Shown here: positions 168-59,456 of the stretch, piece by piece
Numbering within the stretch: position 1 is the first letter of the stretch
How the letters are laid out: each line of letters starts with the position of its first letter
NCBI GenBank assembly: GCA_035290625.1
Contig: DATDTY010000033.1
Coordinates: 20,482 to 84,481, forward strand
Length of the DNA stretch: 64,000 nt
Direction of reading: 5' to 3'
Source: Candidatus Nanoarchaeia archaeon
GTDB taxonomy: Archaea; Nanobdellota; Nanobdellia; Woesearchaeales; DATDTY01
The notes under the pieces: model-generated
Databases searched by the model: none
The model's input: only the letters and a program-made list of their open reading frames with translations
What the model was told of the DNA's origin: nothing
Program-made: the position numbers and the translations under genes

Positions 168-323
168 GGCAGCGTTCAAAATCTCCCGGGTTGCCATCGG
201 CTCGCCTGAGCGTTCTAAGGAATAAAGCTGATATCCCCGAGGGGGCAAGTCCCCCTATCAGCTGTGCATCTGCCTGTAAAGAGGCTCGCAAGAATGGTGG
301 CAACCTTCATTTTGAACGCTGCC
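168..323. repeat. Diverged member of inverted-repeat element family 1 (156 bp). Perfect 15-bp terminal inverted repeats ggcagcgttcaaaat / attttgaacgctgcc. The inner second stem (ggttgccatc / ggtggcaacc) and the central ccccgaggggg hairpin are arranged as in the canonical copies.
   Basis: Inverted repeats, inner stems and a central gctgata-tccccgagggggcaagtccccc-tatcagc hairpin read directly. The architecture parallels the copies at 1636, 11286, 20934 and 50612 but uses different arm sequences. Flanked by tagaacca...tagaatca. Confidence 0.5.
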
Positions 324-1407: not shown

Positions 1408-1469
1408 GCAGCATTTCTAAGAAATTATGTATTTAAAGCTTTGGGCTCCTTAAGCTCTGTCCAGCTAAG

Positions 1470-1586
1470 GGTTGCCGCCCTTTCTGTGAGGTTTTGAACC
1501 AAGACATCAGCACCGACAAGGGAGTCGCCCCCATGGAGGAATGTCGGCTAGCAGCAGAAACAACGCAACCGAACTTGGCGGCAACC
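1470..1586. repeat. Structured repeat family 3, copy A (117 nt). Closed by the 10-bp stem GGUUGCCGCC ... GGCGGCAACC. Homologous to 46242..46359.
   Basis: Terminal 10-nt segments are exact reverse complements. Internal blocks (CUUUCUGUGAGG, AUCAGCAC, GAAACA) are shared with copy B. An outer 9-bp inverted repeat gctctgtcc/ggacagagc lies at 1453 and 1606. Confidence 0.45.
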
Positions 1587-1635
1587 CGATCCTCTATGAG
1601 ATTCAGGACAGAGCCTGTTGGCTTACCCTATGCTC

Positions 1636-1771
1636 GGCTCAGTAGAAAGTCAATCGGCATCGAGCTCGCTTGTGAGGGCATAGGCGATTGCTGACACCCC
1701 CGAGGGGGCATACCATCTGTCAGCAGTGCTGATGAAGCTCGCAAAAATGATGCCGGACTTTCTACTGAGCC
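1636..1771. mobile_element. MITE-like element family 1, copy 1 (136 bp). 16-bp perfect terminal inverted repeats GGCTCAGTAGAAAGTC / GACTTTCTACTGAGCC. 8-bp target-site duplication ctatgctc at 1628-1635 and 1773-1780.
   Basis: Inverted repeats and direct duplications read directly. Nested inner stems GGCATC/GATGCC and GCTGACA/TGTCAGC around a CCCCCGAGGGGG hairpin. The 3' end supplies the stop codon of the adjacent TraB-like gene. Confidence 0.75.
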
Positions 1772-2472
1772 TCTATGCTCACAGAATAGGATATATCAGA
1801 TTCACCTGGGCGATGCGATTTCAGCAGCAGGCTGATCCCTTCCTTATGCCCTGCTCCAACGACTGCAACAACTTTCTTATCCGGATGCTGGGCAAGGATT
1901 TTTTCGAGCTCTGATGCCATGTGCCGGTTCCTCTCTTCGATCAGCACCTTGTAGACATTCGGATACCTGTCCTTGACCTTAGTCATGAGTTTTTTGATAA
2001 GCTGCTCCTCAGGAACCTTCCTTATATCAAACTCGAACTCAGGCTTACGGATTACTGCCCTTCCTAACGCCTTTAGGATATCCAGCACAAACCGCCACTT
2101 TTCCTTCCAGCTTAATGTCTCAGAGAGCCTCTTCAATGTGATCTCGATATCCTGGTCTATCAATGCAATTGGAATGCCTTTCTTCCTTGCATGCATGATG
2201 GCTGTTCTCATCTCTTCTCCTGGGGATACTCCCACAAGGTCACCCAGCTTACGCTCTGCCCAGGCTCCTATCAAGGCAAAGAGATACCCTTTGATGCCTA
2301 TCCTCTTCCAGCTCGCTCTTTTTGCACTGGTTTTTTCAAACAGGCCACGAATGCGCTTTGCATCAATCTCAAGGCAGACAACCGCAGGGCTGTTGGCATC
2401 TATGGCTTCTGCCACTTCCCTTATGCTTTGGGCTGCAATATGGCTTGTTCCTATAAGGATGAGATGTTTCAT
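1762..2472 (-). CDS. TraB/PrgY (GumN) family protein
   Basis: N-terminal ILIGTSHIA ... VCLEID pattern typical of TraB-family proteins. The last 2 codons and the stop lie inside MITE copy 1. Confidence 0.6.
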   Translation of the reverse strand: MKHLILIGTSHIAAQSIREVAEAIDANSPAVVCLEIDAKRIRGLFEKTSAKRASWKRIGIKGYLFALIGAWAERKLGDLVGVSPGEEMRTAIMHARKKGIPIALIDQDIEITLKRLSETLSWKEKWRFVLDILKALGRAVIRKPEFEFDIRKVPEEQLIKKLMTKVKDRYPNVYKVLIEERNRHMASELEKILAQHPDKKVVAVVGAGHKEGISLLLKSHRPGESDISYSVSIEAQ

Positions 2473-11007: not shown

Positions 11008-11075
11008 TGCGGGGAGCAGGCAGCGCAACTCACTTCGTTCGTTGCTGGCCTGCTCTCCTCGTTCATTTCATTCAC
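11008..11075. repeat. tRNA minihelix-like element, 68 nt. Begins with a copy of the 13 3'-terminal nt of the adjacent tRNA (RC gcggggagcagg). Forms a hairpin with gcctgctctcc.
   Basis: Direct repeat of the tRNA 3' end 55 nt from the true tRNA end. About 90% identical to the units at 30357..30498, with compensatory differences. Confidence 0.55.
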
Positions 11076-11239
11076 TGCGGGGAGCAGGATTCGAACCTGC
11101 GTAGGCACTAAGCCAACAGATGGCCCGCCTGAGTAGTTCATCAGACCTGGGTGAGGACCTCAACACTCATGACTTGAGTATGGACGTTTTAGCGCCTGTC
11201 GCCAAACTCTGTCCCGTTTGGCCACTCCGGCATCCCCGC
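11076..11239 (-). tRNA. Intron-containing class II tRNA (Leu-like). Long variable arm UGGCUUAGUGCCUAC and discriminator A. 164 nt, implying an intron of about 80 nt. Anticodon unresolved.
   Basis: Acceptor GCGGGGA/UCCCCGC. D arm CCG-GAGUGGCCAAA-CGG. Anticodon stem ACAGA/UCUGU separated by 87 nt. T arm GCAGG-UUCGAAU-CCUGC. Near-identical scaffold to the tRNA-Leu at 30499..30582. Canonical 37/38 splicing would give the loop GUUUGGA. Confidence 0.6.
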
Positions 11240-11285: not shown

Positions 11286-11525
11286 GGCTCAGTAGAAAGT
11301 CAGTCGGCAGTGGCTTGCAAGCGAGCAAGGCGAGCTTGCTCGCTAGCCACCGGCTCGCTTGTGCTTCCTTCACTGTTTGCTGACACCCCCGAAGGTGCTA
11401 AAAAGAGCCATGCTCTTTTGGCACATCAAAACGCCAGAGGGCGTTTTGATTGGGCCAACCCTCTGTCAGCGGTGCTATAAAAGTAAATAAGCTCGCAGAA
11501 AGGATGCCGGACTTTCTACTGAGCC
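11286..11525. mobile_element. MITE-like element family 1, copy 2 (240 bp; carries an extra internal palindromic insertion). Same 16-bp terminal inverted repeats. Flanked by tttttg.
   Basis: Terminal repeats identical to copy 1. The internal insert gcaagcgagcaaggcgagcttgctcgc is itself palindromic. Confidence 0.7.
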
Positions 11526-20933: not shown

Positions 20934-21078
20934 GGCTCTGTAGAAAGCCAATCGGCATCGGGCTCGCCTGTGGGGAGATAGGCGATTGCTGACACCCCCG
21001 AAGGGGTCTACCCCCTGTCAGCAGTGCTGATGAAGCTGAAGAAGCTCGCAAAAATGATGCCGGGCTTTCTACAGAGCC
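20934..21078. mobile_element. MITE-like element family 1, copy 3 (145 bp). Terminal repeats GGCTCTGTAGAAAGCC / GGCTTTCTACAGAGCC, with two compensatory base changes relative to the other copies. 7-bp flanking gtgaatc.
   Basis: A->T and T->C changes in the left arm are matched by T->A and A->G in the right arm. Internal 9-bp duplication gaagaagct. Confidence 0.7.
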
Positions 21079-21122: not shown

Positions 21123-21980
21123 ATGGCCTATCTCTTTCGCTCTGTTGTTGGAAACGTCGTCTTTGATGAACACTTGAGCATCCTTGAGGGTTCTGCTGGA
21201 TCAGGCATTCAGGAGATTCCAGCACATCTCGTTCCAAAGGCGCTTAAGGCGCTCAAGGACCCCAGATTTTTCTCCTTGTTCAGGAAGGCGAACATTGAGC
21301 TGACGAAGGCAGACATCCGGACTGCTGTTACTGAAGACGTCCTGATCGTCCAGGCAGTCCATATGCTTGATGAACTCCATCGGGCGATGAATATGCTGAG
21401 CACCCAGTTCAGGGAATGGTATGGCTATTATAACCCTGAATTCTCATGGCAGCAGACAGACAACTCAAAATTTATTGACTGTGTTGCTTCCGGCGCTGCT
21501 CCAAAAGCCCTTGACAGCATGGGAGGCAATCTTTCCAAGAAAGATGCGGTTTTTCTGCAGGAGATGAGCATAAAGCTTGGCCAGCTCAACAGCCTGAAAG
21601 CTGATCTTGAGGAGTACCTTGACGGCCTGATGGGGCGAGTCTGCCCAAATGTGGCTGCAATCACCGGGTTTCTCATCGGAGCAAAGCTGCTCGAGAAGGC
21701 AGGATCTCTCCGCCGCCTCTCTGAACTTTCAAGCCAGACAGTCCAGGTATTGGGGGCAGAAAAGGCGTTGTTCAGGCATCTGCGGAATAAGAGGATGCTT
21801 CCGCCAAAATATGGCCTGCTCCATGAGCATCCCCTGATCATGAAAGCACCGAAGGCTGAGCACGGCAAGCGCGCCCGGTTTTTGGCAGACAAGATTGCGA
21901 TTGCATCGAAGGTCGATTATTTCAAGGGCCCTTTTATAGGAGACCGGATCACTAATGAACTGCATCAGAGGTTTCCATGA
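21123..21980 (+). CDS. nop5: C/D-box snoRNP protein Nop5 (Nop56/58 homolog), short form apparently lacking the coiled-coil domain
   Basis: NOP5 N-terminal domain. Nop domain AAITGFLIGAKLLEKAGSL ... GAEKALFRHL. Operon with fibrillarin. Confidence 0.8.
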   Translation: MAYLFRSVVGNVVFDEHLSILEGSAGSGIQEIPAHLVPKALKALKDPRFFSLFRKANIELTKADIRTAVTEDVLIVQAVHMLDELHRAMNMLSTQFREWYGYYNPEFSWQQTDNSKFIDCVASGAAPKALDSMGGNLSKKDAVFLQEMSIKLGQLNSLKADLEEYLDGLMGRVCPNVAAITGFLIGAKLLEKAGSLRRLSELSSQTVQVLGAEKALFRHLRNKRMLPPKYGLLHEHPLIMKAPKAEHGKRARFLADKIAIASKVDYFKGPFIGDRITNELHQRFP

Positions 21981-30361: not shown

Positions 30362-30498
30362 GATGTATGCGGGAGACAGGCAGCGCAACTCACTTCGCTC
30401 GTTGCTGGTCTGTCTTCCTCGCTCATTTCATTCACTGCGGGAGACAGGCAGCGGAATTCGCTGCGCTCATTCCTGGTCTGTCTCCCTTGTCTTTTGAC
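30357..30498. repeat. Two tandem tRNA minihelix-like units (about 70 nt each). Each ends, in tRNA sense, with the 13-nt tRNA-Leu 3' end CCUGUCUCCCGCA. The first overlaps the L18e start codon.
   Basis: tgcgggagacagg occurs three times in direct orientation (30357, 30431, 30499). Units are about 90% identical to 11008..11075. Hairpin arms gggagacaggc / gtctgtcttcc. Confidence 0.55.
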
Positions 30499-30582
30499 TG
30501 CGGGAGACAGGATTCGAACCTGCGTAGGCACTAAGCCACATGGTCCTTAGCCATGCCCGTTTGACCGCTCCGGCACTCCCGC
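30499..30582 (-). tRNA. tRNA-Leu, class II, anticodon read as AAG (loop CUAAGGA), 84 nt, no intron
   Basis: Acceptor GCGGGAG/CUCCCGC. D arm CCG-GAGCGGUCAAA-CGG. Anticodon stem CAUGG/CCAUG. Variable arm UGGCUUAGUGCCUAC. T arm GCAGG-UUCGAAU-CCUGU. Discriminator A. Confidence 0.75.
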
Positions 30583-33361: not shown

Positions 33362-36064
33362 ATGGTTTTAAGAAAATTAACTAAAGAACAGGCGAAAGAA
33401 GAAGTTAAGAAATTAGTAGACAAATATGTCAGGATAGTTGAATCCGGCTCTATTAAAAGATACAAAGAAGAGGATACAAAAGCGGAGTTTATCGAGCCGT
33501 TATTTGAAGCGTTAGGTTGGGATGTCAGAAATACAGAAAATGATGATGAGGTAGTAAGAGAAGAAAAAATCTCAAAGGGCAGAGTAGATTACTCTTTTAG
33601 GATTAATGGAATACCTAAATTTTTCTTGGAAGCAAAAGCACTAAAAGAGGATTTAGACAATATCAAATTCGTGGAACAGGCAGTAAATTATTCCTGGCAC
33701 AAAGGCTGTACCTGGGCAGTCCTTACCGATTTTGAAGCTATCAAGATTTTTAATGCTGAATGGAAAAGCGCAAACCCTTTACAGGCACAATTCGGGCAAA
33801 CCTTGCCTTGTCAATTATTCTTAGAAAAATTTGATACTTTGTGGCTTTTATCAAGAGAAAGCTTTGAGAAGAAACTTCTTGATATTGAAGCAGAAAAATG
33901 GGGTAAAAAAATAAAAAAAACAGCTGTTGATAAACAGCTTTTAAGTGATTTGACAAGATTCAGGGATTTGCTAAACAAGAATATTCTAAAAAATAATTCT
34001 TCAAAGAATATTTCTGGCGATGAATTAGACGAAGCCGTCCAGCGCATAATTGACAGATTAATCTTCATCAGAACTCTTGAAGATAAAGAATTAGAAGCCC
34101 CCATGTTGCAGTCAGTCATCAGGGAGGATTTAAACAAAAGAATCTACAAAAAATTAAACCTCATTTTCAGAAAAATCGATGACATTTACAACAGCAAACT
34201 ATTTACTCCTCACTTATGCGAAGATTTGGACGTAGATGATGAGGTTTTATCAAAGATAATTGGTGGATTGTTTGCTACAACCGATAATACTGTGCGTTAT
34301 GACTTTTCTGCTATTGACGCTGATGTTTTAGGCAACATTTACGAGCAATATTTAGGGCATATTCTAAAGAAAACTGATAAAAGAGCCAAATTAGCAGAGG
34401 GGAAAGCACACAGAAAAGAACAGGGAATATATTATACTCCCACTTATGTAGTAGACTACATTGTTAAAAATACAGTTGGTGAATTAGCTAAAGACAAAAA
34501 ATTTGATTTAAAGAATGTCAAGATTTTAGACCCTGCCTGCGGCTCTGGCTCATTCTTAATGAAAGCATTTGATTATCTTGTCACTCTTGACAAAAAGAAG
34601 AATGGGGAAGTCGACCAGACAAAGCTTGATTTAACTGGGGCTGGCGCTTCATACGGGAGGAAAGTGGAGATATTGAAAAATAATATTTTTGGCGTCGATT
34701 TAGACCCTAAGGCTGTAGAGATAGCTCAGTTGAACTTACTATTGAAAGCAGCAGAGAAAAAACACAGACTGCCAACACTACAAGAGAATATTAAGGTAGG
34801 AAATTCATTAATTGATGATTCTGCTATTGCAGGGAATAGGGCTTTCAAATGGGAAGAACAATTTAAGGATATTATAGCTGATGGTGGGTTTGATGTGGTG
34901 ATTGGGAATCCGCCTTATGTCGAAGCAAGGCAAATAGGACAAAAGTATGTTGATTTTTATAGGGGAAATTTTAAAACCGCCGGTAATAGAATTAATACAT
35001 TCTCTCTATTTATTGAAAAATCAATTAGTTTGTTAAGTGAACATGGCTTATTCGGGATGATAGTGCATAAAAATAGCATACGTTCAAATGATTACATAAA
35101 ATTAAGACAATTTGTTTTGGATAATTGTAAAATATTAAAGATACTTCCAATAGGCGCAGGTGTTTTTGAAGGAGTAACTGGAGAAATGGTTATTCTAATA
35201 TTTCAGAAAGATAGCAATATGAAAGAAAGATTGAAGAATATTGTTTTTCACGGTGGAAAAGATTCAATGTCAAACAAGACTTCTTACCAAAAATTATCTC
35301 AAAGAATCTTTTATGAAATTCCTGGTAATAGATTTAATGTTTATCTAAATGAAACGAAAATAAAAATATTAGAAAAAATAAAAAGCGAGAGTATTGAGCT
35401 TAAAGAAATTGCTTATACTAAACAAGGGATAATTGTTGGAGACGAAGAAAAATATGTCAAAAAAACGAAAGAATCTGAAAAATATAAACCTGTTTTGCGT
35501 GGTAGGAATATATCTAGATATAATATAACCTTTGGCAATGAATATTTATTTTACGTACCAGGTACAGCAGTACTAAAAAGAGGAAAAACACCAGACTTAT
35601 TTGAGAAACCAGAGAAAATTTTGACACAACATGTTTCCGGGAGAATTATAGCCGCTCTGGATTGTGATGAGTATTATGCTTTGCAAACAATTAATCTTAT
35701 TTTCTCAAAGGGTAAAATTTCAAATAAATATCTCTTGGCACTACTCAACAGCAAATTAATTAATTTTTATTACGATAGCTATTTTAATATGGGTTCTGAG
35801 TTTACTACGGCAGTTGCAACAGAAAATTTAGATTTATTACCTATAAAACAAATTCCGGAAAAACAACAGCCCATTATTAAACTAGCAGATAAAATGATTT
35901 CTCTTAACAAAAATCTTAATGGATTAAAAGACAAGCAAACCGACGAAAAAGCCCGTCTTGAGAAAGAAATCCAGAAACTAGATTCTGAAATTGACGAAGA
36001 AGTTTACAAATTGTACGGCATAACAGAAGAAGAAAAGAAGATAATTGAGGAGAGCTTGAAATGA
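33362..36064 (+). CDS. Type IIG (MmeI/Eco57I-like) single-chain restriction-modification enzyme. N-terminal PD-(D/E)xK nuclease, central gamma-class N6-adenine methyltransferase, C-terminal target-recognition region.
   Basis: GRVDYSF ... FFLEAKAL nuclease motif. DPACGSGSFLM (motif I). VIGNPPYV (motif IV). 900 aa. About 33% GC, against roughly 50% in flanking genes. Confidence 0.75.
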   Translation: MVLRKLTKEQAKEEVKKLVDKYVRIVESGSIKRYKEEDTKAEFIEPLFEALGWDVRNTENDDEVVREEKISKGRVDYSFRINGIPKFFLEAKALKEDLDNIKFVEQAVNYSWHKGCTWAVLTDFEAIKIFNAEWKSANPLQAQFGQTLPCQLFLEKFDTLWLLSRESFEKKLLDIEAEKWGKKIKKTAVDKQLLSDLTRFRDLLNKNILKNNSSKNISGDELDEAVQRIIDRLIFIRTLEDKELEAPMLQSVIREDLNKRIYKKLNLIFRKIDDIYNSKLFTPHLCEDLDVDDEVLSKIIGGLFATTDNTVRYDFSAIDADVLGNIYEQYLGHILKKTDKRAKLAEGKAHRKEQGIYYTPTYVVDYIVKNTVGELAKDKKFDLKNVKILDPACGSGSFLMKAFDYLVTLDKKKNGEVDQTKLDLTGAGASYGRKVEILKNNIFGVDLDPKAVEIAQLNLLLKAAEKKHRLPTLQENIKVGNSLIDDSAIAGNRAFKWEEQFKDIIADGGFDVVIGNPPYVEARQIGQKYVDFYRGNFKTAGNRINTFSLFIEKSISLLSEHGLFGMIVHKNSIRSNDYIKLRQFVLDNCKILKILPIGAGVFEGVTGEMVILIFQKDSNMKERLKNIVFHGGKDSMSNKTSYQKLSQRIFYEIPGNRFNVYLNETKIKILEKIKSESIELKEIAYTKQGIIVGDEEKYVKKTKESEKYKPVLRGRNISRYNITFGNEYLFYVPGTAVLKRGKTPDLFEKPEKILTQHVSGRIIAALDCDEYYALQTINLIFSKGKISNKYLLALLNSKLINFYYDSYFNMGSEFTTAVATENLDLLPIKQIPEKQQPIIKLADKMISLNKNLNGLKDKQTDEKARLEKEIQKLDSEIDEEVYKLYGITEEEKKIIEESLK

Positions 36065-36921
36065 CTGAAAAAGATAAAGCTCTCGTTGTCTTCCAAGACA
36101 GGAAAATAAGGAGAGTATGGCATCAAAACCTGTGGTTTTTTTCAGTAATTGATATTGTAGCTATTTTGACGGAACAAGAAGACCCGTATACTGCAAGAAA
36201 ATACTGGAATAAGCTGAGCCAACGGCTAAGAGAAGAGGGAAGCGAAGTGGTGACAAATTGTCACCGGTTGAAACTTCCGGCAGAAGATGGAAAGCTAAGA
36301 GAAACCGATTGCGCTAATACTGAAAGCATATTTAGGATTATCCAATCAATTCCATCAAGGAACGCAGAACCATTCAAAAGATGGCTTGCTAAAGTTGGGT
36401 ATGAGCGTGTGCAGGAAATAGAAAACCCTGAACTAGCGCAGGAGCGCATGAAAGAGCTTTATGAGCAGAAAGGATATTCAAAATCATGGATTGACAAACG
36501 GCTGAGAGGAGTAGCAGTAAGACAAGATCTCACTGATGAATGGAAGAAGAGAGGAATTGAAAGCCAAGACGATTTTTCAATACTCACTGCGGAAATATCA
36601 AAAGCCACTTTCGGCATGACTCCAAGTGAATACAAAAAATTCAAAGGGCTTACAAAGGAAAACCTAAGAGACCATATGAGGGATTTAGAACTCATATTTA
36701 CCATGCTAGGAGAAGCATCAACTGCGGAGATTGAACGCATAAAAGACCCTGTTAAGTTCGCTGAGCACAAAAAAGCATCTAAGGAAGGTGGGAATGTAGC
36801 GAAAAAAGCAAGACTCGAGCTAGAAAAAAAGACGAAAAGCCCGGTTGCGAGCAGAGAAAATTACCTTGAAGAGCCTGAAAAAGAAAAGCGAAAAAGGCTA
36901 CCTGAACCTGAAAAGGATTGA
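36061..36921 (+). CDS. Bro-N-like N-terminal domain plus DinD-like (DNA-damage-inducible protein D family) C-terminal domain; paralog 1
   Basis: ALVVFQDRKIRRVWHQNLWFFSVIDIVAIL (Bro-N / KilA-N-like). KGLTKENLRDHMRDLELIFTMLGE resembles E. coli DinD KGLKKNQKILDHMGSTEL. ATGA overlap with the RM stop. Confidence 0.5.
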   Translation: MTEKDKALVVFQDRKIRRVWHQNLWFFSVIDIVAILTEQEDPYTARKYWNKLSQRLREEGSEVVTNCHRLKLPAEDGKLRETDCANTESIFRIIQSIPSRNAEPFKRWLAKVGYERVQEIENPELAQERMKELYEQKGYSKSWIDKRLRGVAVRQDLTDEWKKRGIESQDDFSILTAEISKATFGMTPSEYKKFKGLTKENLRDHMRDLELIFTMLGEASTAEIERIKDPVKFAEHKKASKEGGNVAKKARLELEKKTKSPVASRENYLEEPEKEKRKRLPEPEKD

Positions 36922-37247: not shown

Positions 37248-38099
37248 ATGGACAAAGACAAGGCTCTCGTAGCATTTCAGGATAAGAAAATCAGGAGGAT
37301 TTGGTACAATCAGGAATGGTTTTACTCGGTTATTGGCATCGTTGAAGTTCTTACAGACAGCCCAACTCCTAGGCAGTATTGGGGAAAAGTCAAAGACAGA
37401 GAATTCATAGCTCTTGAACTGTCCCCAATTTGGGTACAGTTGAAATTGGCAGCAGAAGATGGCAAATTGCGGTTTACGGACTGTGTTAACACCAAAAATG
37501 CCTTTAGGCTAATTCAATCCATTCCTTCAAAGAAAGCAGAGCCTTTCAAACAATGGCTTGCGCAATTGGCTCAAGAGCGCATTGAGGAGATAGAAAATCC
37601 TGAATTAGCCCAAGATAGGGTGAAAGAATACTATGAACTCAAAGGTTATCCGAAGGATTGGATAGACAAGCGTCTGAGAGGCATTGCCATACGGCAGGAA
37701 TTGACTGATGAATGGAAAGATCGAGGCGTCACAGAAGAAACAAATTTTGCAATCCTCACAAACGAGATAAGCAAAGCAACTTTTGGAAAGACTGTTCAGG
37801 AATACAAGGAACTCAAAGGCCTTAAGAAAAAGAATCAAAACCTCAGAGACCACATGACAGATTGGGAACTCATATTCAATATGCTGGGAGAAAAGGCCAC
37901 AACCGACATCACAAGGACAAGAGACGCACAAGGATTTGAGGAAAATAAGCAAGCTGCGAGAAGAGGAGGCCAAATAGCCCATAATGCGAGAAAAGAACTG
38001 GAACAAGAAACAGGCAAATCCGTGATCTCAAAAGATAATTTTCTAAGCCTTACTGAACAGAAAAAGCTCGAAAACAAGAAGAAAAACGACAAGAAATAG
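37248..38099 (+). CDS. Bro-N-like plus DinD-like protein; paralog 2
   Basis: ALVAFQDKKIRRIWYNQEWFYSVIGIVEVL. KGLKKKNQNLRDHMTDWELIFNMLGE. Roughly 55% identical to paralog 1 over the aligned regions I compared by eye. Confidence 0.5.
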   Translation: MDKDKALVAFQDKKIRRIWYNQEWFYSVIGIVEVLTDSPTPRQYWGKVKDREFIALELSPIWVQLKLAAEDGKLRFTDCVNTKNAFRLIQSIPSKKAEPFKQWLAQLAQERIEEIENPELAQDRVKEYYELKGYPKDWIDKRLRGIAIRQELTDEWKDRGVTEETNFAILTNEISKATFGKTVQEYKELKGLKKKNQNLRDHMTDWELIFNMLGEKATTDITRTRDAQGFEENKQAARRGGQIAHNARKELEQETGKSVISKDNFLSLTEQKKLENKKKNDKK

Positions 38100-46177: not shown

Positions 46178-46241
46178 TACCCCTTATAAGTCTGTGTTTG
46201 TTTAAATAGTTTTGCTATCGTTTTGACCTGGCCCGATTGGA

Positions 46242-46359
46242 GGTTGCCGCCTCTTTCGCGAGGCACAATAACTCCTATCAGCACAAGCGGAGGGGGTCGT
46301 CCCATACGGGGCGGTGCCGCTCTTCGCTGGAAACAGCAAGAGCCGAGCTGGCGGCAACC
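46242..46359. repeat. Structured repeat family 3, copy B (118 nt). Same GGUUGCCGCC ... GGCGGCAACC closing stem as copy A. Contains a GAAA tetraloop hairpin CUGGAAACAG. Flanked by an 18-bp direct repeat ctatcgttttgacctggc (46215-46232 and 46388-46405).
   Basis: Terminal complementarity and flanking duplication read directly. Shares the AUCAGCAC and GAAACA blocks with copy A. Confidence 0.45.
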
Positions 46360-46915
46360 CGAACCATGCAAGATTTGGGGTAGTGCCCTATCGTTTTGAC
46401 CTGGCTGGTTCTGAAGAAGTCCTTATAATCTCATCCGGAAATCCGTACTCGAACGGAAATCCGTACTCGAAGTATACCTTACTAGAAGTATAGAATTATG
46501 GGCAGAAATAAGCCGCCTTTTGTGGGGCCCTCCCCTTTTGGAAAGGTTCATCGAAGGCCCTGCCAGCATTTGACTTAGCGTTCTGTGAACTTGCACAAGC
46601 CGGGGCTCGCCTTTCATCCATTCACAGGAAAATCCATTGGATTTTCCTGTCCCGGAAAATCTCTGATTTTCTCGGGCCTCAAAATCGTCTGCAGGTTATC
46701 TCAGTTTTGTCGCCAAAACCTTCTCATGCGTCTTCCTCTTTGAGGGGGGTCTTGTTTCTGCGCGGTTGCCATCCCTTTCGAGATGTGCCTCTCGGCACCG
46801 GCTGCTCCATCCTAAATAAGGGAATTTAACCCTTATCTTCGGACTTCAGTGGGCGGACTTTCCTCAGTTTCCCGAAAGCCAGCTTTCTGCCCGCTTTCTG
46901 AAAAGCTCCGCTCAT

Positions 46916-48046
46916 TTATAAACCTTTATCCTCCATTTTCTGCTCTTTTCTGAACAGCAGGATCCTAAACTCTTTTTTCCCCTGCCAGATAGATCTCCTC
47001 TCTTTGATGATGAACTGGCGCTTTTTTGCGGCCTCTTCAACCTTCTCCGGCTTGGGGGTCAGCAGTGCGATAACTCCCTCTTTTCTTAAGATGTATTCTG
47101 CAGCGTAAAAGAATTCATTGAGCAGCTTTTCTCCTCCCTTGTCATCCAAACCTTCCGGCAGCCTTGTGATAATCTTGTCTACGCTTTCTTTCTCAAAGCG
47201 CGTATCCAGCCATTCTGTCTCAATCTTTGAGAAGCGAATTGCTGAGCAGCCTGCAATCTTTGCGTTCTTCTCAGCAGCACGAACATTCCTCATCTCGGGG
47301 TCGGCGGCGGTGATGCCGAGTTGCGGCTTCTTGTACTCTCTATCGATATTCTCAAACCATTTTAGGATTCTTGGCTGGCTTGTTAGCTTTTGCTTCTCGA
47401 AAAAACGAACAGGCCGCTCTCTTGCGAGGCATGCCTCAATGGCGATTTCTCCGCTTCTGCAAAATGGATCAAGGATGGTTTCGTCCTTTTTTATCTCTGC
47501 TATCCTGCAGAGGGCAAATGCTGTTGTGCCGGTAATGCCTTGAGGGTGTGTGAAAATCCTGTAGGTGCGTTTTCCCAGATCCAGCTTTGTTATGTCCCTG
47601 CTTATGCTGATACCCTTGTTGGTGGCTGAAACGAGGATGGTCTGCTCTGGGTTCTCAAGATCCACTTCCAGGATATTCCTGCTTTTGGCCTTGATGCATT
47701 CCCCACAACCAGCCTCTATCTCTTTAGCAGTATGCTCAGGATCCTCTCTGGTTAGCGATTCCACCTTAAAGCTTCCCTTGAGCCAGCCCCACCTGCATTT
47801 GTTGATCATGCCTCTGGCTTGGTCCAGGATATCGTCGCTCTTTTCTTCCCTAATCAGAAGTTCTCCAATCCGGTGAATACTCTGGGCGCAGTACGCGACC
47901 TTCCACACGGCATCTTCGGAGGCGTCAAACACCACCTCTTTCTCATTGATTGTTGCGTGCGCAGAGATTAATTCGCTGATCTCTTTCTCTGCAGCCTCTT
48001 CAGCTCCCCTTTGGGTATAGGCAACCGCCTTCAGAACCTTCCTCAT
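46916..48046 (-). CDS. THUMP-domain RNA methyltransferase (Trm14 / tRNA m2G6-like)
   Basis: N-terminal THUMP-like region. [15 protein letters not shown] (motif I). Class I MTase fold. Confidence 0.65.
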
Positions 48047-50487
48047 TCTGCCTTGACAAGAGCAGCGGAAACCACTTTGTCGCCCTCCTCCAGCTTCATG
48101 ATCCTGACGCCCTGGGTGTTCCTCCCGATTACTCCTACTCCTGAAATCGGTATGCGGATGATCGATCCTTGCTGCGAGACCACCATCACTTCTTCTTTAT
48201 CGGATACGCATTTGATGGCTACAACTGCGCCGTTCCTCTCATTTGAAACGATGTCTATAACCCCCGAACCCCCCCGGGAAATGAGCCGATACTCAGAGAC
48301 AGGCGTCCTCTTTCCGTATCCCTTCTCTGTTATCGTGAGCAGAAACTTGTCGGGGTCTGCCTTGACCATACCAATAACACGATCTTTTGCCTTCAACCTT
48401 ATGCCTCTGACCCCTTTTCCTGACCTTCCGACAGTCCTAATATCCTCCTCATGAAACCGCACTGCTTTGCCTGCTGCAGTTGCCAGGATCAGCTCAGATT
48501 CCTGATCCGTAAGCTGAACGTTCTCGAGCTCATCCTCACTTTCAAGTGTGATTCCGATGATGCCTCCCTGGCGCGGCCTGCTGTACTCTTCAAGCCTCGT
48601 CTTTTTTATGATGCCCTTCATTGTTGCCATGACCAGGCAATGCCTGTCGTCGAATTCCTTCACAGGGATGCATGCCGAGAGCCGTTCTCCTTCCTGCAGC
48701 TTCAAGAGGTTCGTTATGGCTTTTCCCCGCGCTTGCCTCCCCTCTTCAGGTATTTCCCATACTTTCAGCCAATGCACCCTCCCTTTATTTGTAAAGAACA
48801 GGAGATAGCTCCTGCTTGAGCCTACAAAGAGATCTTCAATGAAGTCCTCTTCTCGTGCTGTCGCAGCTATGACTCCCTTACCCCCCCGCTTTTGCTGCCT
48901 GTACGCCTCCAACCCCAACCTTTTGATATAGCCTGCGTGAGTAATCGTGATCACATTCTCTTTATCCTCGATGAGGTCCTCTTCGTCAACATCCTTCGCT
49001 TCCTCGATAATCTGCGTCCGTCTTGCGTCGCCATACTTTTCCTGGATGTCCCTCAGCTCTTCCTTTATGATTTCGAGGATTCTCTGCTCGCTTGCCAAGA
49101 TATCTTTCAGATTCTTAATCAGGGTCGTCACCTCTTCCTGCTCCTGCACGACCTTGCCGCTCTCTAGGCTTGTGAGGCGAGACAGGCGCATGTCAAGAAT
49201 TGCCTGGGCCTGCTTTTCAGAAAGCACAAATCTTTCCATAAGGGTTGCTCTTGCATGATCGGCGTCTTCAGACTTCCTTATTGCCTCAACTACATCATCG
49301 ATGTTCTGCAGGGCAATGATCAGGCCTGCGAGGATATGGCTTCGCTCTTCGGCTTGCCTGAGATCATACTCTGTGCGCTTCCGCACAATCTCTCTCCGGT
49401 GCGCCGCATACTGCTGCATCATCTCTTTGAGGTTCAGGATTTTCGGCTGGTTGCCGACAAGCGCGAGCATAATCACCCCAAATGCAACCTGCAGCCTGCT
49501 CCTTGCATAAAGCTGATTCAGCAGGATTTCCGGATCTACCCCCGCCTTCAGCTGAAGAACAATGCGGATACCCTCCCGATCGGATTCGTCGCGTATATCC
49601 GAGATTCCCTGGACTCGTTTGTCTTTTACGAGCTCAGCAATCTCCTCAACGAGCTGGGATTTGTTTACCATGTACGGTATCTCCTTTATGACTATTGCGT
49701 CCCTGTTCTTGGCTTGCCCGATCTCGGCCTTTGCACGGATGACAATCTTGCCTTTTCCGGTCTGGAACGTCTGATGGATGCCTCGCCTGCCACGAATCAA
49801 TCCCGCTGTTGGAAAGTCCGGCCCTTTTACGAATTGCATCAGCCCTTCAATGCTAATCTCCGGGTTGTCAATGAGCGCAATCACGCCCTGGCAGATCTCC
49901 CTGAGATTGTGGGGGGGAATGTTTGTTGCCATCCCAACAGCAATTCCGCTGCTTCCGTTGATGAGCAGGTTTGGGAGCTTTGCAGGAAGCACTGCAGGCT
50001 CAGTCATGGAATCGTCAAAATTTGGGACAAACTCAACCGTCTCCTTTTCGATGTCTGCCAGCATCTCTTCTGCAATGCGGTTCAGCCTGGCTTCTGTATA
50101 GCGCATCGCAGCAGGGCGGTCTCCATCAACTGATCCAAAATTTCCCTGGCCATCAATGAGCGGATAGCGCAATGAAAAGGTCTGGACCATCCGGACCATG
50201 GCATCATACACCGCAGTATCGCCATGCGGATGGTATTTACCCAATGTTTCCCCGACAATCCTCGCAGACTTCTTATAGGGCCTGTTATGGAGCATCCCCA
50301 TACTGTGCATTGCAACGAGAATCCTGCGGTGCACGGGCTTTAATCCGTCACGGGCATCTGGCAGCGCCCTTCCCACAATCACTGACATAGAATATGCGAG
50401 GTAGGACTTTTTCATCTCCTCTTCAATCAATGTGCTTACGATTCGCTGCTTGGTTGATGCGGATTTTTCTTCAGATTTTTCTTCCAT
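48043..50487 (-). CDS. gyrA: DNA gyrase subunit A
   Basis: [18 protein letters not shown] ... [16 protein letters not shown] ... [11 protein letters not shown] with catalytic Tyr in AAMRYTE. C-terminal beta-pinwheel repeats. Confidence 0.9.
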
Positions 50488-50611
50488 TGTCCTGAGAATT
50501 CTCCCTGAATTTCAGTATCAAAGAATGGACAGCCGTATATAAGCCTTTTGGTGGAAAATTGCCTTTATAGGCCGTATATCAAAGAAATTTACGTATTGAG
50601 TTGCGTATTGA

Positions 50612-50753
50612 GGGCTCAGTAGAAAGTCAATTGGCATCAGACTCGCTTGCGCTCGTATTCGTGTATGCTGCCCCCCGAAGTTGGCAACTCTGTCAGCAGT
50701 GGTTATGACTGCAAAGAAGCTCGCAAAAATGATGCCGGACTTTCTACTGAGCC
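50612..50753. mobile_element. MITE-like element family 1, copy 4 (142 bp). 16-bp terminal repeats identical to copy 1. Perfect 8-bp target-site duplication gtattgag (50604-50611 and 50754-50761).
   Basis: Terminal repeats and abutting direct duplications read directly. Lies upstream of gyrA. Confidence 0.8.
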
Positions 50754-52448: not shown

Positions 52449-52496
52449 GACCTTTTGGTATACCCTTGCTTATAAAAATCTTTCCAGCCAATGGTG

Positions 52497-52896
52497 GCAT
52501 TGAAAAGTCATGCAATGCCCTTTGTGAGCCTTCTATTCAAAGTACAGAACAGCGACAAAGGGGTTGCTCCATACGGAAAATGTCGATTCCCATGAGAGTA
52601 TGCGCAAGGCGAAGTCGGCATTGCCGAACGAAGTGAGCAACTTTTCAATGCGACCCAGCCAACGGCTCTACTGAAACCCCCGGCAGTGCCCATTTGCGAG
52701 GCTTCTCCATGACTAACGGCGCATCGACAAGAAGGCTGTCTCATCCGGAGAATGTCGATTTAAATCCAAGGCATTCCGAGCCGAGCCTGGCACTGCCTGC
52801 GAAGCGTTTCAGCAGAGCCCAGCCCAGAGCGCTATTGAAAAGCCATGCAACGCCAACTTGCGAGGCTTAAGAGCAACCGCTTCCCTCGAGCAACGA
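52497..52896. repeat. Repeat family 2: about 2.3 degenerate tandem copies of a roughly 170-bp unit bounded by cattgaaaagt ... acttttcaatg
   Basis: Unit 1 (52497..52655) has a 12-bp terminal inverted repeat gcattgaaaagt/acttttcaatgc. Shared blocks ttgcgaggcttct, aatgtcgatt, ggcattgcc recur in units 2 and 3. Confidence 0.55.
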
Positions 52897-59235: not shown

Positions 59236-59278
59236 GCAAGAGTCAAGAAAAAAGGTGTGTTTAAAAAGTTATTGGGCT

Positions 59279-59441
59279 GGTGCCATTGAAAAGTTGCTAG
59301 CTTCGCTCGGCAGCGCCAAGTTCGCCATGCGCAGATGCTAAGGAAAAACGACATTCTCCGAAGGCGCCAACCCTCTTGTCGTTGCACAGTCTTTTGTTCC
59401 AATGGCTCACAGGAGGGCGCTGCATAACTTTTCAATGGCGC
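59279..59441. repeat. Repeat family 2, single inverted copy (163 bp) with terminal inverted repeats around ccattgaaaagtt / aacttttcaatgg. Flanked by a 7-bp direct repeat ttgggct (59272-59278 and 59442-59448).
   Basis: The reverse complement aligns along the whole length with unit 1 at 52497..52655 (shared cattgaaaagt, tgtgagcc, ggagaatgtcg, tgcgca, agcaacttttcaatg). Confidence 0.55.
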
Positions 59442-59456
59442 TTGGGCTTGGAAATG

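Follow-up and report, generated by a model that had tools for sequence, protein, structure and literature searches.

Miniature inverted-repeat elements sharing a rod-like fold in a Nanoarchaeia genome, and an insertion sequence that probably mobilizes them

Introduction

Bacterial genomes contain structured MITEs (miniature inverted-repeat transposable elements), among them Correia/NEMIS, ERIC, RUP and BOX, which are short, intergenic and multi-copy, form long hairpins, carry terminal inverted repeats (TIRs) and often lie beside promoters or gene ends. Here we describe elements of the same general form, with no sequence relationship to these families, in a 64,000-nucleotide stretch of archaeal DNA (Candidatus Nanoarchaeia archaeon, assembly GCA_035290625.1, contig DATDTY010000033.1, positions 20,482 to 84,481 of the forward strand; hereafter the window). 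Unlike the bacterial families, they comprise sub-families with exchangeable TIRs and can carry optional hairpin modules. We conclude that they are very probably MITEs mobilized in trans by the DDE transposase of an IS5-type insertion sequence (IS), and that their fold is probably a property of the element itself.

IS903 makes 9-bp target duplications, and this is also the length that we measured for the elements described here and for their proposed partner IS. The likeness extends to the ends: IS903 begins GGCTTTGTTGAATAAATC in an annotated Klebsiella plasmid record, the TIR here is GGCTC[A/T]GTAGAAAGTC, and 10 of the first 12 positions are identical. Both ISs are of similar size (~0.9-1.06 kb) and have a single DDE_Tnp_1 open reading frame (ORF). 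Unlike IS903, the present system belongs to a DPANN archaeal host, and the interior of its MITE is unrelated to the interior of the IS.

A prokaryote-wide MITE census places a Woesearchaea genome among the densest archaeal genomes, with 105 MITEs per Mb (PMC11602168), and the ~10 elements that we find in the 64-kb window are of the same order of magnitude. That census gives counts; the family, its transposase partner and its architecture are not described there. Our full-text literature search found no paper with these TIR sequences, and none combining Woesearchaeota, transposase and inverted repeats. This is apparently a MITE superfamily of an ordinary kind that is individually undescribed. 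MITEs are common and understood in outline, and the general picture of mobile DNA is unchanged by one more. The value of the case lies in documenting a superfamily and its likely IS partner in Woesearchaeota/Nanoarchaeia, whose genomes are tiny and whose assemblies are broken by repeats that account for a few percent of the sequence. The TIR motif given above, together with a 9-bp duplication, also provides practical markers for annotators of DPANN metagenome-assembled genomes (MAGs). One feature is noteworthy, and we regard it as moderately interesting: sub-families that differ in their ends have retained a common rod-like scaffold. It offers a clean case of a MITE in which the architecture of the interior is conserved better than the ends that the transposase binds, which makes the purpose of the fold testable.

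Results and Discussion

Dispersed copies with perfect inverted repeats

A search of the window for the 16-bp TIR GGCTCAGTAGAAAGTC, allowing up to 3 mismatches, returned 8 matches, whereas shuffles that preserve dinucleotides gave 0.61 +/- 0.82 and reached 8 in 0 of 100 trials. The matches pair up in inverted orientation as 1636/1771, 11286/11525, 20934/21078 and 50613/50753. All four copies delimited in this way have perfect 16-bp TIRs, and together with a diverged relative at 168-323 they can be aligned over their entire length:

1636..1771 (+): main-family MITE copy 1, 136 bp; bounded by the TIRs 1636-1651 and 1756-1771
11286..11525 (+): main-family MITE copy 2, 240 bp; 145-bp scaffold plus module A plus module B
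20934..21078 (+): main-family MITE copy 3, 145 bp; TIR variant GGCTCTGTAGAAAGCC in both arms
50613..50753 (+): main-family MITE copy 4, 141 bp; in the interval separating scpB from gyrA
168..323 (+): diverged sub-family member, 156 bp; 15-bp TIR GGCAGCGTTCAAAAT / ATTTTGAACGCTGCC, 15/15 complementary

These elements, 136-240 bp long, contain no ORF and have no coding capacity. The element at 168-323 has an interior homologous to that of the main family (nhmmer E 8e-24; covariance model 63.9 bits) between perfect 15-bp arms of another sequence. Both the TIR-bounded family and this diverged copy had been proposed in a first-pass annotation of the DNA, and both hold. So does its reading of copy 3, whose two arm substitutions are indeed matched in the opposite arm, and of the internal structure, with a GGCATC/GATGCC stem, a GCTGACA/TGTCAGC stem and a CCCC-GAR-GGGG tip. 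Compensation between the arms is nevertheless no rule in the main family. Copies on other contigs (given here by L numbers) differ at TIR positions 6, 14 and 15, which are unequal between the arms in L129, L131/L140, L132 and L135:5118-5301; matched arms are found in copy 3 and in L142.

We scanned a metagenome collection for exact matches to the conserved right end, GATGCCGGRCTTTCTACWGAGCC, and obtained 18 matches in 17 loci, which resolve into 15 distinct copies. The contigs that carry them show no synteny with the window at the DNA or protein level; only the repeats are in common. The family therefore extends beyond the copies first annotated and occupies many unrelated sites in at least one other genome.

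Target duplications of 9 bp

The duplications flanking the elements were originally described as 7-8 bp long. Re-reading the flanks of the window and metagenome copies corrects this: the target-site duplication is 9 bp and variable in sequence. The 9-bp flanks of copy 1 (1627-1635 and 1772-1780; CCTATGCTC / TCTATGCTC) agree at 8 of 9 positions and those of copy 3 (TGTGAATCA / CGTGAATCC) at 7 of 9. Copy 2 shows an 8/9 duplication after a 1-nt slip within a T run, and the decayed duplication of 168-323 reaches 7/9 after a 1-nt shift. At copy 4 the boundary is ambiguous by 1 nt. The perfect 8-bp gtattgag reported earlier is correct under one choice; assigning the final C of the right repeat to the target instead gives a duplication of the full 9 bp, CGTATTGAG (cgtattgag), matching at 9/9. 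On other contigs, perfect and directly abutting 9-bp duplications flank L131/L140 (one site), L132, L133 and L135:5118-5301. Five main-family sites, window copy 4 included, thus have perfect 9-bp duplications, and five more agree at 7-8 of 9; those of L128 and L129 are 8/9 and that of L138 is 7/9.

The copy 4 target is also repeated 5' of the element (50592-50612), in the arrangement cgtattgag-ttg-cgtattgag. Either an element that had previously inserted and excised at this spot left the repeat as its footprint, or a tandem repeat may already have been there.

An insertion sequence with identical ends

Species-representative genomes (596 Gb, for which roughly a thousand chance matches were estimated) were scanned with GGCTCWGTAGAAAGYC. 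About half of the listed matches are chance occurrences in bacteria. The remaining listed matches are concentrated in MAG contigs from Woesearchaeota, Nanoarchaeota and "Methanosarcinales", where this 16-mer stands at the head of many sequences that differ from one another and is often located at the end of a contig. Among the matches listed are ~25 unrelated MITEs (87-264 bp) with the same TIR, on Woesearchaeota/Nanoarchaeia MAG contigs, most of them with perfect 9-bp duplications. Two further elements of ~900 bp (L017:245-1144 and L077:142-1036) each contain one ORF of 272-281 amino acids (aa), matching Pfam DDE_Tnp_1 (PF01609) at E 3e-17 and 5e-13. With the L077 transposase as query, at least 270 related proteins were retrieved, several of them named as Woesearchaeota or Nanoarchaeota transposases and most on contigs of ~1 kb, as expected for collapsed multi-copy ISs.

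The 896-bp IS at L147:1424-2319, on a 40-kb contig, matches the window elements exactly at its ends. Both are GGCTCAGTAGAAAGTC, identical to the window TIR at 16/16 positions, and they are flanked by a perfect 9-bp duplication, GATAAAAAG. Its one ORF (P0244, 271 aa), which is among the relatives retrieved with the L077 protein, has a PF01609 DDE_Tnp_1 domain. An autonomous element with matching TIRs does exist. L017, L077 and L148 are sister ISs, the last in a Woesearchaeota genome and with a perfect 9-bp duplication. The closest annotated plasmid-borne relatives of the partner transposase are haloarchaeal IS5-family transposases, at ~30% identity. The partner is thus an archaeal IS placed distantly within the IS4/IS5 superfamily, its ends resembling those of IS903, and we do not file it in the IS903 group. 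An assignment to IS6 or ISL3, made from the TIR and an 8-bp duplication, is ruled out by the DDE_Tnp_1 ORFs and the 9-bp duplication.

The transposase ORF terminates within the right TIR. Where TIR position 6 is A, the reading frame meets TGA and ends ...TFY-stop; where it is T, translation reads through to ...TFYRA. This accounts for the circulation of both variants.

At its left end the partner IS has a G+C-rich hairpin between the TIR and a Shine-Dalgarno-like GGAGG/GAGGT motif directly 5' of the transposase start. The hairpin is seen at L147:1440-1500 and L148:1448-1500 and at the left ends of L107, L030 and L017, and it could mask translation from read-through transcripts. The IS left end had no match in a scan of viral contigs.

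Dispersed copies, clean target duplications and an IS with an identical TIR all agree with the original proposal of non-autonomous, TIR-bounded elements moved in trans, as does the absence from the window, already remarked on, of any homologue of the partner family. We infer that an L147-type transposase mobilizes the main family. The 16-bp TIRs would be bound and cleaved by a DDE transposase supplied in trans, the putative supplier being a ~0.9-kb IS of the IS4/IS5 superfamily with IS903-like ends that begin GGCT.TGT.GAA, and staggered cuts of 9 bp at integration would produce the 9-bp duplications. Sub-families with other ends (GGC...GAAA.TC) are presumably served by other, related transposases.

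One scaffold, several sub-families

The basic unit of the main family is 145 bp, and two optional modules occur on it in all four combinations, giving lengths of 145, 184, 202 and 240 bp. Module A is a 39-42-bp hairpin inserted after CGGCA (11310-11351 in copy 2). Module B, a 57-bp pair of A-run/hairpin/T-run units, is inserted in the loop of the central hairpin (11394-11451 in copy 2). The TIR, the second stem (CGGCATC/GATGCCG), the central hairpin (GCTGACA...TGTCAGC) and the CCCC/GGGG tip are nearly invariant in the main family, and two internal stretches are variable.

The units of module B in copy 2, AAAAAGAGC..GCTCTTTT and CAAAACGCC..GGCGTTTTG, resemble bidirectional terminators. Some copies on other contigs have module B and others lack it.

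The window holds ~10 elements, among them at least six more that are related or degenerate. A profile search and a covariance model, built on ten 145-bp copies with the three-helix structure specified by hand, recovered sub-families there and in the metagenome contigs (52493-52660 is listed with 59275-59447, to which it belongs):

1453..1615 (-): degenerate relative adjoining copy 1; covariance model 37.6 bits, E 3e-7
46230..46365 (-): weak, degenerate relative; 21.1 bits, E 0.0045; stem 2 TGCCGCC / GGCGGCA
52493..52660 (+): second, probably related MITE family, TIR GGTGGCATTGAAAAGT; duplication ccagccaaT / ccagccaaC, 8/9
52667..52819 (-): sub-family member, TIR GGCTCTGCTGAAAC / GTTTCAGTAGAGCC; 37.2 bits, E 4e-7; three-helix architecture
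59275..59447 (-): the other copy of the GGTGSCATTGAAAAGT family, sharing 73% identity with 52493-52660; 18.1 bits, E 0.026
L132:5488-5686: metagenome superfamily element, TIR GGCTTCCCTGAAAAT; duplication 8/9
L136:1152-1316, L127:6520-6683 and L128:4067-4184: metagenome superfamily elements

The ends of the sub-families differ, yet all fit GGC...GAAA.TC, and where duplications are recognizable they are of ~9 bp. Inside the ends, sub-families also vary in the sequences of their second stem and central hairpin, and both helices keep their complementarity. One arm of the second stem reads CGGCATC, TGCCGCC, CAGCGCC, GAGCGCC, CAACGCC or CAGTGCC, and one arm of the central hairpin GCTGACA, GCTGATA, GCCGACA, AGCGACA or AACGACA. 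The degenerate element at 1453-1615 illustrates this, with outer arms GCTCTGTCC / GGACAGAGC, stem 2 GGGTTGCCGCC / GGCGGCAACCC and central hairpin CCGACA / TGTCGG; it has no recognizable flanking duplication.

Around the weak relative at 46230-46365, the flanks hold not a 9-bp duplication but a direct repeat of 17 bp, CCAGGTCAAAACGATAG (region 46216-46403). In strain contig L005, ~57 nt of this element (46230-46288) are replaced by 41 nt.

MITEs of different sub-families also lie end to end, at 52493-52660/52667-52819, L131:4137-4481, L140:1946-2322 and L138:5377-5697, separated only by the 9-bp duplication of one element. This suggests that insertion beside an existing element is preferred.

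A fold maintained by paired changes

Each copy folds as a rod, with z-scores of -5.4 to -8.1 relative to dinucleotide shuffles, and both strands fold about equally (-72.7 and -66.3 kcal/mol for copy 1). To quantify the pairing, we counted base pairs in 24 distinct elements, using paired columns only, joined by fixed linkers. Standard pairs fill 93.9% of cells, compared with 78.5% after shuffling and 35-41% when the partners are slid, and 27 of 36 pairs are changed on both sides, compared with 12.2 and 6-9, respectively; these counts are inflated both by the fitting of the alignment to the structure by the covariance model and by the common descent of the sub-families. The observed values were reached by 0 of 500 shuffles on any measure. 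Mismatches are rare in the TIR, in stem 2 and in the outer central stem, where G-T is about as infrequent as A-C. T-G cells are frequent only in the CCCC/GGGG tip (11/23 at one pair), where the pairing is ambiguous.

In the four window copies, mismatches affect 0 of 64 arm pairs and ~5 of 36 duplication positions. This contrast is a small hint that the arms are maintained after insertion; copies on other contigs do not show it.

Every TIR transposon should have complementary TIR arms, since its two ends have to be bound by a single transposase. The covariation of the two internal helices is not accounted for in this way. The rod interior, envisaged as the TIR stem, a second stem of 7-11 bp and a central G+C-rich hairpin, is probably kept either as an aid to propagation of the element or through hairpin-templated repair that matches the arms. 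If selection acts on the element, multiplication would continue only in lineages retaining the rod; a 145-bp duplex, for example, is stiff, and the folded form may help to unite the ends. On present data, element-level selection and hairpin-templated correction cannot be separated. The earlier alternatives for the compensated arms were sub-families mobilized by different transposases or selection on an RNA or DNA hairpin. In the event, sub-families with different TIRs are real and the rod is kept by paired changes as well; what failed to find support is a function at the RNA level.

Searches of Rfam (15) found only tRNAs at gathering thresholds in the whole window, and nothing at E up to 1 in 100-1850. 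A C/D-box small RNA, considered on account of UGAUGA and CUGA motifs, was rejected, as the box spacing does not fit by eye and Rfam gives no match.

Weighing the explanations

Several observations weigh against the conclusion that these are MITEs mobilized by an IS5-type partner. Six of the 15 distinct metagenome copies have no recognizable duplication. The IS with identical ends comes from a different sample (ERZ25069191), not from the window's genome, and neither the window nor the 17 metagenome loci that carry the MITE contain a transposase of the partner family. By blastn, the interior of the window MITE is absent from the genome-scan loci listed, and only the TIR is common to IS and MITE; the MITEs are therefore not simple deletion derivatives. 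As to classification, NF033579 (transpos_IS5_2), the best NCBIfam match, scores 127.8 and 94.6 bits for the L017 and L077 ORFs, below the cut-off of 140, and P0244 is 21% identical to the IS903 transposase over 160 residues (BLASTP, E 8e-5, a single comparison). The inflation of the pair counts noted above belongs here too. Finally, copy 4 is present in every one of the nine strain-level contigs examined (99.8-100% identity), and among these near-identical contigs there is no empty site or insertion polymorphism. None was found because only near-identical strains of this organism exist for comparison: the next-closest GyrA proteins, many of them labelled Woesearchaeota, are only 62% identical.

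Of the other accounts, the one we take most seriously, while still thinking it doubtful, is that matched arms and paired changes are a mutational by-product, not a product of selection, arising by intrastrand template switching or hairpin-directed mismatch correction at replication; imperfect palindromes would thereby be made more perfect, with a change in one arm copied to its partner. In bacteria, the correction of quasipalindromes through template switching is established as a mechanism of mutation. It would fit the changes matched in both arms of copy 3 and L142, the arms of 168-323, which pair at 15/15 despite a decayed duplication, and the fact that all the optional inserted modules are themselves hairpins. 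The account leaves unexplained the recurrence of one three-helix layout in sub-families that differ at most stem positions, and arm mismatches stand uncorrected beside perfect duplications in L131/L140, L132 and L135:5118-5301. It is unlikely, on our assessment, that the three-helix rod is instead a functional scaffold onto which TIRs are swapped to suit whichever IS5-type transposase is present. Such a scaffold might present the paired ends as a folded single strand or cruciform, or act as a structured RNA on the transposase or on neighbouring genes; if true, it would amount to a modular MITE design, a scaffold plus exchangeable ends, in very small DPANN genomes.

We consider it more improbable still that the rod is a functional RNA, either a small RNA or a cis signal (stabilizer, terminator or processing site), selected by host or element with transposition as its means of spread. 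The strength and conservation of the rods (z-scores of -5 to -8) would suit such an RNA, as would the covariation of the second stem and central hairpin across sub-families, an interior better conserved between sub-families than the TIRs, the intact arms of the window copies (0/64 mismatches, compared with ~5/36 in the duplications), the T-G-rich tip helix and the position of copies near the promoters of tRNA-Gln, nop5 and gyrA. Promoter proximity, however, is expected, because nearly all non-coding DNA in so compact a genome is promoter or terminator space. Orientation relative to the flanking genes is mixed (2 sense and 3 antisense among co-directional gene pairs), the two strands fold comparably, no Rfam family matches, G-T shows no clear excess over A-C outside the tip, and several copies on other contigs do not keep their arms complementary. 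We conclude that the rod is not kept by each copy being a host RNA gene and is more likely a property at the level of DNA. Least credible of all, to the point of being nearly dismissed, are REP/REPIN-like or IS200/IS605-type palindromic elements, which a tyrosine HUH transposase (RAYT/TnpA), and not a DDE enzyme, would move in single-stranded hairpin form. They would share the hairpin-rich rod shape and a structure conserved while the sequence varies. HUH-transposed elements, though, are not known to have TIRs or target duplications, whereas main-family copies, the L132 sub-family copy and the second-family copy have sequence-variable 9-bp duplications, and the long TIRs here are identical to those of a DDE_Tnp_1 IS.

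Genomic context and other features of the window

NCBI records assign three proteins of the window (GyrA, carbamoyl-phosphate synthase and a DNA methylase) to a Candidatus Nanoarchaeia archaeon MAG, and a GyrA identical to the window's occurs on groundwater metagenome contigs. From these records and the distance to the nearest other GyrA, the uncultured host (Woesearchaeota/Nanoarchaeia) belongs to the DPANN archaea and lacks any closely related sequenced genome. All copies in the window are intergenic, and the promoter neighbours named in the first-pass annotation (the intron-containing tRNA, nop5 and gyrA) are correct. Copy 2 lies 46 bp upstream of tRNA-Gln(ttg), c[11075,11240], whose intron is 80 nt long; 44 bp separate copy 3 from the Nop-domain gene downstream of it (21123-21980); and copy 4 lies between scpB and gyrA (48043-50487). 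In strain contig L146, 35 bp between copy 4 and the gyrA start are gone (window 50486-50530), and gyrA is called 24 codons shorter.

Copy 1 covers the last three codons and the stop of a TraB-family ORF (1762-2472, minus strand), its right TIR supplying the stop codon. With copy 1 and one duplication removed, the ORF would end ...VSIG-stop, compared with ...VSIEAQ-stop at present. The TIR holds TAG in one frame, and two unrelated 236-aa ORFs end 10 nt inside an element (1762-1771; L127:5850-5859). An insertion site shared by the window and L127 at the ends of these ORFs was rejected, as the proteins are unrelated; the apparent coincidence is explained by the TAG.

Two other sets of repeats were seen in the window. 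Repeats of ~70 bp, 78-90% identical, lie at and just beyond the 3' ends of tRNA-Gln and tRNA-Leu (11012-11115 and 30368-30538), in tandem at 30368-30511, and might be remnants of an integration site. A 450-bp repeat with 69% identity (36267-36714 and 37439-37892) lies within the adjacent ORFs 36061-36921 and 37248-38099, which resemble tandem paralogues.

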